Positions 50,219-59,425 of a stretch of 64,000 nt of DNA are shown in pieces. The notes beneath the pieces were generated by a model. That model was not told the origin of the DNA and searched no databases. It worked only from the letters and a program-made list of their open reading frames with translations. Within the stretch, counting starts at the first letter, position 1; each line of letters starts with the position of its first letter. Origin of the DNA: Escherichia coli. GTDB lineage: Bacteria > Pseudomonadota > Gammaproteobacteria > Enterobacterales > Enterobacteriaceae. A program made the translations under genes and the position numbers. The stretch lies in assembly GCF_003334255.1 (NCBI RefSeq), contig NZ_QOWU01000011.1; one strand, written 5' to 3'.

Positions 50219-50401
50219 ATCACCACTTTAGCAACCTGAAGCCAAACGCCACCAGCGGTCAATCGCAACAGCGTTTCGCAAAGTGTAACCAAAGGTTTGC
50301 AATCTCTTTTTTTGTCTTACTTATTTGCGTTTGGCTCACATTCCCACGATGAAAACACGCCACCCCTTGAACCAACGGGCGTTTTCCGTAACACTGAAAG
50401 A

Positions 50402-56329: not shown

Positions 56330-57091
56330 TTAACGCGCCAGCCAACCGCCATCCACGGCAATGGTATAACCATTCACATAATCTGAAGCGCTGGAGGCAA
56401 GGAACACTATCGGCCCCATCAGGTCACTCGGCAGTCCCCAACGACCAGCTGGAATGCGGTCGAGAATTTCCGCGCTACGTTGTTCATCTGCCCGTAGTTG
56501 TTGAGTATTGTTGGTCGCCATGTAACCCGGGGCTATCGCATTAACATTAATGTTGTGTTTAGCCCATTCGTTCGCCATCAATCGCGTCACACCCATCACG
56601 CCGCTTTTTGATGCGGTATAAGAAGGCACACGGATCCCGCCCTGGAAGGAGAGCATTGACGCGATATTGATAATCTTGCCGCCATTGCCTTGCGCGATAA
56701 AGTGTTTCGCCGCTGCCTGAGACATGAAGAATACGCTCTTGATATTCAGGTTCATGACATCGTCCCAGTCCTTTTCGCTGAACTCGAGAGCATCTTCGCG
56801 GCGAATCAATCCGGCGTTATTCACCAGGATATCAATATGACCAAACTCCGCTACCGCGCGATCCAGCAGTGCTGGAATACCATCAATCTTTCGCAGATCG
56901 GCGGTCAGGCTTAAAAAACGACGCCCCAGCGCTGTGACCTGCTCGATGGTTTCAGTCGGTTCAACGATGTTAATGCCAACAATGTCACAGCCCGCTTGCG
57001 CCAGCCCCAACGCCATCCCCTGACCCAGTCCAGTATCACAACCAGTGACGACCGCAACTTTACCTTCGAGAGAAAATGCACTTAAAATCAT
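56330..57091 (-). CDS. kduD: 2-dehydro-3-deoxy-D-gluconate 5-dehydrogenase (SDR)
   Basis: 253-aa ORF with SDR glycine motif (VTGCDTGLG); recognised as KduD. Confidence 0.95.
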   Translation of the reverse strand: MILSAFSLEGKVAVVTGCDTGLGQGMALGLAQAGCDIVGINIVEPTETIEQVTALGRRFLSLTADLRKIDGIPALLDRAVAEFGHIDILVNNAGLIRREDALEFSEKDWDDVMNLNIKSVFFMSQAAAKHFIAQGNGGKIINIASMLSFQGGIRVPSYTASKSGVMGVTRLMANEWAKHNINVNAIAPGYMATNNTQQLRADEQRSAEILDRIPAGRWGLPSDLMGPIVFLASSASDYVNGYTIAVDGGWLAR

Positions 57092-57120
57092 AACAATACC
57101 TTATTCGTTTATGCCCACAA

Positions 57121-57957
57121 CTAGCGCAAATCTTTAACGGCCACATGGTCCATATCATCAAAGACCTGGTTTTCACCGACCATGCCCCAGATAAAGGTAT
57201 AAGCTTTGGTTCCGACACCGGAATGGATCGACCAGCTCGGGGAGATCACCGCCTGCTCGTTATGCATCACAATATGACGCGTTTCTTGCGGCTGCCCCAT
57301 CATGTGGAAAACGCAGGCGTCATCATCCATATTGAAATAGAAATAAACTTCCATCCGGCGCTCGTGGGTGTGACACGGCATGGTGTTCCACAAGTTACCC
57401 GGAGCCAGCTCCGTCAGCCCCATACTCAATTGGCAGGTTTCCAGTACATCCGGGACAAAATATTTGTTAATCGTGCGACGGTTACTGGTGAGGTTATCGC
57501 CTAACGTGACTGGAGATACTTCGTCCGGTGTGACTTTTTTGGTGGGATACGTCGTATGCGCGGGTGCGCAATTGTAATAAAACTTCGCCGGAGTGCCGGT
57601 ATCAATACTGGCAAAGACAACTTCTTTTGCACCTTTACCAACATACAGGGCGTCGCGGTGACCGATTTCATAGCATTGGCCATCGACAGTAATCGTACCG
57701 GCACCGCCAATATTGATAACACCTAACTCGCGACGTTCAAGGAAATAGCTTACGCCGAGTTGTTTACCAACTTCCCCGCCAACGGAAACCGTTTTAGTTA
57801 TCGGCATAATGCCGCCAACAATAATTCGGTCAATGTGGCTGTAAACCATGGTGTACTCATCGGCGACAAATACCTTTTCAACCAAAAATTCATTGCGCAG
57901 CCCTTGGGTATCCAGCGTTTTTGCGTGCGCACTGTGGATGCTCTGTCTTACGTCCAC
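57121..57957 (-). CDS. kduI: 5-dehydro-4-deoxy-D-glucuronate isomerase (cupin)
   Basis: 278-aa ORF recognised as KduI. Confidence 0.95.
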
Positions 57958-58002
57958 ATCAACCTCCGATAATCAGTGAAGCGTGAAAATAGAAAACGAT
58001 AG

Positions 58003-58088
58003 TGAAACACTGTTTCGTTTTCTCTATAAAGGGATGATATGCCCATGGGCTAGGGTTTTCAATTAAAAATAAAACAATGTTTCATTTT
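58003..58088. promoter_or_regulatory. Two KdgR-operator-like palindromes upstream of kduI
   Basis: tGAAACActGTTTCg (58003-58017) and ataAAACAaTGTTTcatttt (58069-58088); resemble the KdgR box AAATGAAACAnTGTTTCATTT. Confidence 0.5.
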
Positions 58089-58243
58089 TAAGTTAAGGAT
58101 TAAAAAAAGTGCAGTGTCGATCACGAATATGTCATGAGAATGGAAAAATGAGGGAGCCCAGAAAATGTATGTCGACTTGCCAGCCATCATTATTCAACAG
58201 ATTAATGACGGCAGATATTTATCGGTAAGGAGGAAATGCAGAG

Positions 58244-59425
58244 CTATTCGTCACGTTCAATGGTCAATGCCACACCCTGGCCCCCGCCGATACAAAGCGT
58301 TGCCAGTCCTTTGCGGGCATTACGTTTCACCATTTCATGAACCAGAGAAACCAGGATTCGGCAACCGGAAGCGCCTATCGGGTGACCGAGTGCGATCGCG
58401 CCACCATTGACATTGACCCGACGCTCATCCCACTCAAGCATCTTGCCAACCGAAAGCGCCTGTGCAGCAAACGCTTCATTAGCCTCGATAAGATCGACTT
58501 CAGCCAACTGCCAGCCTACACGCTCCAGGCAACGGCGGGTCGCATACACCGGCGCAATTCCCATCAATGCCGGATCTACACCAACGCTGGCAAATGCGCG
58601 AATGCGGGCCAGCACGGGTAAATTCAACGCTCGTGCTTTGGCTTCGCTCATCATCATTACCGCAGCTGCGCCATCGTTTATGGATGATGCATTACCCGCT
58701 GTCACAGAACCGAGACTATCAAATGAAGGATTTAAACGGGCTAAGCCTTCTGCGCTGGCGTCAGTGCGTGGCTGTTCATCGGTATCAACAACCAACGTCT
58801 GCCCGTTACTTTGGGTCATTACCGGGACGATCTCATCTTTAAATCGTCCGGCGTCAATCGCCGCTCGCGCTTTTTGTTGCGAGCTAAGTGCGTAAGCATC
58901 CTGCAACTGACGGCTGATGCCATATTCGCGAGCCAGATTTTCGGCGGTGACACCAATATGATAATCATTGAAGGCATCCCACAACCCATCATGCACAAGA
59001 CTGTCAACCAACTGGCTATTGCCAAGCTGTGCACCGGTGCGGCTATCAGTCAGAACATGTGGTGCGCGGCTCATGTTTTCCTGGCCACCGGTGATGACAA
59101 TATCAGCCTCGCCACACTGTATCGCCTGAGTAGCCAGATGCAGTGCTTTAAGCCCGGAACCGCAAACGTCATTAATAGTGATTGCAGAAACGCTATTAGG
59201 CAGACCACCTTTAATAGCCGATTGCCTTGCCGGATTCTGCCCTGCCCCTGCAGTCAACACCTGACCAAGAATTACTTCATCCACCGCATATGCAGGAACG
59301 CCGGTACGTTCTATTAACGCTTTCACGACCAGACTACCAAGTTCCACGGCGGAATGACCCGCTAACGCACCACGAAAGCAGCCGATAGGTGTCCGTAACG
59401 CCCCGACAATCACAACGTCTTTCAT
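58244..59425 (-). CDS. yqeF: Thiolase-family acetyl-CoA acetyltransferase homologue
   Basis: 393-aa ORF from ATG 59425 (MKDVVIVGALRTPIG...); thiolase catalytic Cys motifs present. Confidence 0.85.
   Translation of the reverse strand: MKDVVIVGALRTPIGCFRGALAGHSAVELGSLVVKALIERTGVPAYAVDEVILGQVLTAGAGQNPARQSAIKGGLPNSVSAITINDVCGSGLKALHLATQAIQCGEADIVITGGQENMSRAPHVLTDSRTGAQLGNSQLVDSLVHDGLWDAFNDYHIGVTAENLAREYGISRQLQDAYALSSQQKARAAIDAGRFKDEIVPVMTQSNGQTLVVDTDEQPRTDASAEGLARLNPSFDSLGSVTAGNASSINDGAAAVMMMSEAKARALNLPVLARIRAFASVGVDPALMGIAPVYATRRCLERVGWQLAEVDLIEANEAFAAQALSVGKMLEWDERRVNVNGGAIALGHPIGASGCRILVSLVHEMVKRNARKGLATLCIGGGQGVALTIERDE

Follow-up and report, generated by a model that had tools for sequence, protein, structure and literature searches.

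Known KdgR operators, such as those of pel, ogl, kdgT and kduI in Dickeya dadantii and of kdgK, kdgT and eda in E. coli, share with the kduI boxes studied here the same A/T-rich palindrome of 21 bp with GAAAC/GTTTC half-sites. They belong to the regulon of 2-keto-3-deoxygluconate (KDG) and pectinolysis and serve the same pathway, from uronate to KDG, and their repression is relieved in kdgR mutants. A 21-bp consensus, AAATGAAACAnTGTTTCATTT, has been published for KdgR (Rodionov 2000/2004, as quoted in PMC5559549), and the same article (PMC5559549) names KDG as the KdgR inducer in Dickeya. In E. coli, eda, kdgT, kdgK and kduD have been called 'known targets of KdgR' (Shimada 2019, PMC6958661). 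KdgR operators of kduI-kduD are thus already known; according to citing papers, they were predicted two decades ago by comparative genomics. The number of boxes differs among the E. coli genes: kdgK has one box and kdgT has one strong box with a weak neighbour 22 bp away, whereas kduI has two full-strength boxes that bracket its promoter. Nothing in the kduI boxes is essentially different from the known KdgR operators.

The kduI boxes were analysed in a 64-kb window of the E. coli genome (64,000 nucleotides of contig NZ_QOWU01000011.1), in which araE, kduD, kduI and yqeF, all on the minus strand, are followed by yqeG on the plus strand. The regulated gene, kduI (57121-57957, minus strand, with a GTG start at 57957, from the list of open reading frames and the RefSeq annotation of the identical K-12 sequence), encodes 5-dehydro-4-deoxy-D-glucuronate isomerase. 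The gene co-regulated with it, kduD, begins 29 bp downstream (56330-57091, minus strand, from the same list and annotation) and encodes 2-dehydro-3-deoxy-D-gluconate 5-dehydrogenase. A Shine-Dalgarno sequence, GGAGG, precedes kduI at 57963-57967 (minus strand), and its alignment columns are near-invariant, in at least 95% of the sequences. The spacer between kduI and the stop codon of yqeF is 286 bp long (57958-58243). A stretch of 401 bases around the boxes has the same sequence as K-12 MG1655 (100% identity), and 5419 of 5426 complete E. coli genomes contain the box region. Several open reading frames of 21 to 43 codons are also present in the K-12 kduI-yqeF spacer (57958-58243), and for E. 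coli 536 a microprotein of 23 amino acids encoded beside kduI has been predicted, together with its binding to KduI by AlphaFold-Multimer (2024 preprint, PMC11188072).

Two palindromes in this spacer had been proposed as KdgR-type operators in the initial annotation, and both were read in the sequence at the positions given there: tGAAACActGTTTCg at 58003-58017 and ataAAACAaTGTTTcatttt at 58069-58088. Since kduI is on the minus strand, both lie upstream of it. As 21-bp KdgR boxes they extend from 58000 to 58020 (the proximal box, with the core GAAACAcTGTTTC at 58004-58016 and its centre at 58010) and from 58067 to 58087 (the distal box, with the core AAAACAaTGTTTC at 58071-58083 and its centre at 58077). 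The proximal core is a perfect 6-1-6 palindrome, GAAACA-c-TGTTTC, and the distal core reads AAAACA-a-TGTTTC within long A/T flanks. The palindromic nature of the proximal site was recognised correctly from the start, but the 2-nt centre first assigned to it gives way to a better parse, 6-1-6 with a 1-nt centre. Likewise, the distance between the sites, first put at about 65 bp, is corrected to 67 bp from centre to centre (58010 to 58077). The box centres are 53 bp (proximal) and 120 bp (distal) upstream of the kduI start codon. No further full or tandem KdgR-like box was found in the kduI-yqeF spacer, and none lies within 19-22 bp of either box.

The likeness to the KdgR box, which had been noticed by eye, was borne out by motif searches. 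When the 64-kb window was searched with the consensus AAATGAAACANTGTTTCATTT at up to 3 mismatches, the only matches were the two boxes, against 0.00 expected. The distal box has 1 mismatch and agrees with the published consensus at 19 of its 20 specified positions, and the proximal box has 3 mismatches and agrees at 17 of 20. A search of the same 64 kb with the core pattern GAAACANTGTTTC at up to 1 mismatch gave 3 matches versus 0.12 expected, a number that none of 100 shuffled sequences reached. The scan with a KdgR matrix that had been suggested as a check was also carried out, using a symmetric weight matrix derived exclusively from non-Escherichia genomes (81 distinct orthologous boxes; maximum score 29.9 bits). 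Both boxes were the top-scoring sites of the window, the distal one at 28.5 bits and the proximal one at 26.2 bits. The maximum in 200 shuffles averaged 11.7 +/- 2.6 bits and the highest single value was 20.1 bits, which leaves both boxes more than 6 bits above it. The literal sequences of the boxes gave no match in a full-text literature search.

Could the boxes be functionless palindromes that arose by chance in A/T-rich DNA? The spacer is indeed A/T-rich, and the third core match, AAAACAATGTTTC at 36646-36658, is an unrelated one in a coding region. However, 2-3 matches were observed where 0.00-0.12 were expected, the matrix scores of both boxes exceed the best of 200 shuffles by more than 6 bits, and in about 80 species the boxes have been kept amid a diverged spacer. 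The consensus search, the conservation and the matrix scores together exclude a chance origin, to which we give a negligible probability. The match at 36646-36658 was itself treated as chance rather than as a KdgR site, given its coding location (which we take to be the ppdC-ygdB-ppdB area), its flanks, which do not follow the consensus, and its score of 7.5 bits. The next-best window score was 14.0 bits (AATCGCAACAGCGTTTCGCAA, 50261-50281) and falls inside the range of shuffled sequence.

The same non-Escherichia matrix was applied to other operators. The E. coli KdgR-regulon operators of kdgT and kdgK score 26.9 and 20.5 bits, respectively. Because these two operators score highly, the kduI boxes share a motif class with the KDG-regulon operators. 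For eda only a weak candidate with 3 mismatches was found, and this gene was omitted from the operator comparison.

A promoter scan placed a sigma-70 promoter between the two boxes. Its -35 hexamer, TTGAAA (58057-58062, minus strand), is identical in 80 of 81 orthologous upstream regions. In the -10 hexamer, TATCAT (58034-58039, minus strand), at least 95% of the 81 sequences keep the T, A, A and T of TAnnAT, with variation at the two middle positions. The -35/-10 spacer is 17 bp long in 81/81, and the distance from the centre of the distal box to the -35 hexamer is 15 bp, again in 81/81. A peak of RNA polymerase sigma-70 in the kduI-yqeF spacer, obtained by gSELEX (an in-vitro selection of genomic fragments), was assigned to the same promoter (Shimada 2014, PMC3946193). 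From the position of the -10 hexamer, transcription is predicted to start at an A 7 nt after it (58027, minus strand), with a kduI 5' UTR of about 70 nt; no experimental kduI start site was found, the supplements of Kim 2012 included. Relative to the predicted start, the distal box would be centred at about -50, span -60 to -40 and end 5 bp upstream of the -35 hexamer, and the proximal box would be centred at about +18 and span +8 to +28. The two boxes thus bracket the conserved sigma-70 promoter of kduI-kduD, a uronate/KDG pathway operon. The kdgK and kdgT promoters gave no match in the consensus promoter scan.

Farther upstream, 40-41 bp from the distal box, a conserved CRP-like site, CGTGATCGACACTGCA, is located at 58110-58125 on the minus strand, with its centre about -90.5 from the predicted start. 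Its CGTGATC and the downstream CA are kept in at least 95% of the 81 sequences, and in many genera the block reads CGTGA-N6-TTACA. The E. coli copy has a weak right half and fails TGTGA-N6-TCACA at up to 2 mismatches, and CRP-like consensus matches in the 64-kb window are at chance level. Expression of kduI is lowered in a crp deletion (PMC8846999). It is because of the conservation and the crp-deletion data, not the consensus, that 58110-58125 may be called a probable CRP site upstream of the kduI promoter.

The conservation was followed in 80 loci from a KduI genome scan (Escherichia, Citrobacter, Enterobacter, Kluyvera, Kosakonia, Lelliottia, Trabulsiella and other genera) and in an alignment of the 230 bp upstream of kduI from 81 Enterobacteriaceae sequences. 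The alignment consists of near-invariant islands amid an otherwise diverged spacer. Across genera, the distal box reads AAAAnTGAAACnnnGTTTTAnnT, with the half-sites TGAAAC and GTTTTA kept in 79-81 of the 81 sequences; the proximal box reads AAAaCG(G/A)AACnnnGTTTc, with the half-sites CG(G/A)AAC and GTTTC kept in 76-80 of the 81. The central 3 nt of both boxes are degenerate across the 81 sequences. Fixed half-sites around a free central trinucleotide are the mark of a site for a dimeric helix-turn-helix protein and not of an RNA stem.

The same data bear on the proposal that the palindromes act in RNA, either the proximal one as a hairpin in the 5' UTR that affects translation or stability, or the two as a terminator of yqeF. 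In the predicted 70-nt leader, a hairpin with the arms AGAAAACGA and UCGUUUUCU does enclose the proximal box, at -16.7 kcal/mol. However, the fold is not significant (z = -1.7, with 12 of 200 shuffles folding as well); beyond Escherichia, its 3' arm (the one downstream of the proximal box) shows little conservation, in contrast to the box half-sites. A 6-bp stem with a 1-nt loop cannot form, and the distal box, being upstream of the promoter, would not be transcribed from it. No terminator was predicted for yqeF by the scan, and no Rfam match was found. An RNA-level role is therefore highly improbable. A second inverted repeat, of 9 bp, is formed by AGAAAACGA and TCGTTTTCT at 57991-58023; its centre is shifted by 3 bp from that of the proximal box, which it overlaps. 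This repeat could give a hairpin in the 5' UTR, although such a fold is not significant either (z = -1.7) and the 3' arm is again little conserved beyond Escherichia.

Every divergent E. coli strain examined has an unchanged distal box. In NRG 857C (O83:H1; L088) and the river isolate AVS0947 (L089), three G-to-A changes occur at the equivalent of 57998-58005, and two of them turn the left half of the proximal box from AGTGAAAC into AATAAAAC. The latter half-site is already present in the distal box and in kdgT, and therefore the proximal box of these two strains is still within the consensus. In E. coli D53-1, an IS1 element (L090:2738-3435) has inserted into the yqeF-kduI spacer at about 58139, just upstream of the CRP-like site, leaving both KdgR boxes and the promoter intact. 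One outlier came from a metagenome-assembled genome labelled 'Deltaproteobacteria' (L002:541-1476), in which 936 bp are 99% identical to E. coli kduI. This match starts 20 bp upstream of the start codon, at the ribosome-binding site, and has unrelated flanks; the probable explanation is chimeric assembly or contamination, or else an engineered cassette.

Published expression data agree with repression of the operon by KdgR. Derepression in a kdgR mutant, whose failure would have spoken against the operators, has been reported three times. First, the level of kduD mRNA goes up in a kdgR deletion, as seen by Northern blot (Shimada 2019, PMC6958661). Second, kduI and kduD were over-expressed, by RNA-seq, in an evolved strain with a 39-gene deletion that removes kdgR, and direct repression was predicted by the authors (Sastry 2019, PMC6892915). 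Third, kduD is likewise up in Klebsiella isolates with a natural loss of kdgR (PMC8612250). Moreover, glucuronate or galacturonate, both of which are catabolised to KDG, raised the activity of a kduI promoter-luciferase fusion 7- to 11-fold under aerobic and 19- to 54-fold under anaerobic conditions (Rothe 2013, PMC3578941). The primers of that study map to 57925-58281, so the fused fragment carries both boxes, the promoter and the CRP-like site. Motif, conservation, published kdgR-loss data and hexuronate induction thus all support the original proposal of KdgR-type operators repressing kduI-kduD. The searchable literature yielded no footprinting, gel-shift or ChIP experiment with E. coli KdgR on the kduI spacer.

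Taken together, the two palindromes are very probably operators of KdgR, the IclR-family regulator of the 2-keto-3-deoxygluconate regulon, that bracket the sigma-70 promoter of kduI-kduD and act in the following way. Without inducer, one KdgR dimer would bind to each box. On the distal box it would occupy the DNA on which the alpha C-terminal domain of RNA polymerase docks (the UP-element zone) and would stand in the path of a signal from the CRP site near -90; on the proximal box, centred at about +18, it would block the initially transcribed region. Jointly, the two boxes would hold the promoter in the off state. Once KDG is formed by catabolism of galacturonate, glucuronate or pectin/uronate fragments, KdgR would leave the DNA and the promoter would fire, probably aided by cAMP-CRP. 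This amounts to a base-resolution confirmation of a textbook-style module, the KdgR control of the kduI-kduD branch of uronate catabolism, which matters for gut- and plant-associated growth on sugars derived from pectin and glycosaminoglycans. The additions made here are modest: a promoter-bracketing layout that is strictly conserved in Enterobacteriaceae, a probable CRP site, and a sharper picture of the boxes, which look KdgR-like rather than PlaR-like.

The last point concerns PlaR (YiaJ), a paralogous IclR-family repressor, of which the boxes might primarily be the operators, with the effects of KdgR secondary or indirect. A number of observations are consistent with this possibility. PlaR gave a gSELEX peak upstream of kduI, gel shifts were reported in vitro for all ten high-affinity PlaR target probes, and kduD mRNA was up in the plaR mutant (Shimada 2019, PMC6958661). 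The reported PlaR box, ATnTGAAACnnnGTTCAnTT, is a palindrome nearly equal to the KdgR box and to the kduI boxes, and its recogniser is the paralogous repressor. Each repressor also affects the other, with kdgR mRNA up in a plaR deletion and plaR mRNA up in a kdgR deletion (PMC6958661). The recognition helices are alike (KSTVYRFLQ in KdgR versus KSTVHRLLQ in PlaR) and the overall identity is 34%, which makes cross-recognition between the two proteins plausible.

On the other side, the kduI boxes score like the operators of kdgT and kdgK (20-27 bits), whereas the yiaK operator, the cognate target of PlaR, reaches 11.3 bits on the kduI-box matrix. The gel shifts with PlaR needed 1-5 uM protein (PMC6958661). 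The YiaJ i-modulon (an i-modulon being an independent co-regulated gene set), examined by RNA-seq of a yiaJ knockout, comprises 10 genes with a precision of 1.0 against the YiaJ ChIP-exo regulon, and kduI and kduD were reported with the kdgR-removing deletion and not with this i-modulon (PMC6892915). The regulon defined by in-vivo RNA-seq of the yiaJ knockout is limited to the yiaK operon. Finally, deletion of kdgR alone is enough to derepress kduD (PMC6958661; a similar effect is seen in Klebsiella, PMC8612250). We consider it quite unlikely that PlaR is the main occupant. Since PlaR binds the spacer in vitro and a plaR mutant has raised kduD mRNA, occupancy may nevertheless be shared; we take KdgR to be the principal repressor, with PlaR as a possible second occupant.

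A further question is whether the two KdgR-bound boxes co-operate, as the initial annotation had suggested. In one model they would contact each other, through a tetramer or by dimer-dimer interaction, and loop out the intervening 67 bp, in which the promoter lies. The arrangement has a functional analogy with the gal operators OE/OI (GalR) and the lac operators O1/O3, in which there are also an operator upstream of the -35 hexamer, an operator in the early transcribed region and an upstream CRP site, although the gal and lac repressors belong to a different family from KdgR. The inter-operator distance is 113 bp in gal and 92 bp in lac, compared with 67-68 bp at kduI. In favour of looping, two strong operators bracket the promoter without auxiliary tandem sites, and the boxes are conserved together, their spacing being 65-69 bp in the 81 sequences and 67 or 68 bp in 76 of them (67 bp in 54, 68 bp in 22 and 65, 66 or 69 bp in 5). 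Much of this narrow range is due to the fixed promoter that sits between the boxes. Tetramers are also known for IclR-family proteins, which can occupy several palindromic sites at one promoter, as at kduI (PMC8222616).

However, the cooperative tandem sites of this family are typically 18-22 bp apart, whereas the kduI boxes are 67 bp apart (PMC8222616). A spacing of 67-68 bp corresponds to about 6.4-6.5 turns at 10.5 bp/turn and is not obviously in phase, and it drifts by up to 4 bp between genera, with all of the variation located between the -10 hexamer and the proximal box. Looping is thus possible but doubtful, and repression by each KdgR-bound box on its own is the simpler reading.

A more elaborate scheme, a 'promoter clamp', was suggested by the fixed geometry, that is, the 15 bp between the distal box and the -35 hexamer in 81/81, the CRP-like site 40-41 bp farther upstream and the second box at ~+18. 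Here the distal operator would be an anti-activator that cuts the link from CRP to the alpha C-terminal domain, and KdgR (responding to KDG) and PlaR (responding to ascorbate/galacturonate) would share the boxes or compete for them. This scheme is speculative and in our judgement unlikely; if it were true, the kduI promoter would integrate two plant-derived signals.

Repression at the two boxes may not account for the whole induction of the operon. Within the coding sequence of kduI lies 57048-57496, a fragment reported as a distinct kduD promoter that responds to hexuronates (Rothe 2013, PMC3578941). No KdgR-like box was found in 57048-57496, where the best matrix score is 2.2 bits. This fragment is inducible yet has no KdgR box, and part of the kduD induction is therefore unexplained by the two operators.

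In many non-Escherichia genomes, a third strong KdgR-like box, TATCAAAACAnnGTTTCAtt, is present further upstream of kduI; in E. coli this box is absent and the spacer is shorter. In Enterobacter cloacae (L026:~1250-1270) it is located ~60 bp upstream of a divergent gene of 391 amino acids, identified by eye as a putative oligogalacturonate lyase gene (ogl). In Citrobacter werkmanii (L019:~1139-1159) it lies at -340 to -390 within a longer spacer, with yqeF as the upstream neighbour.
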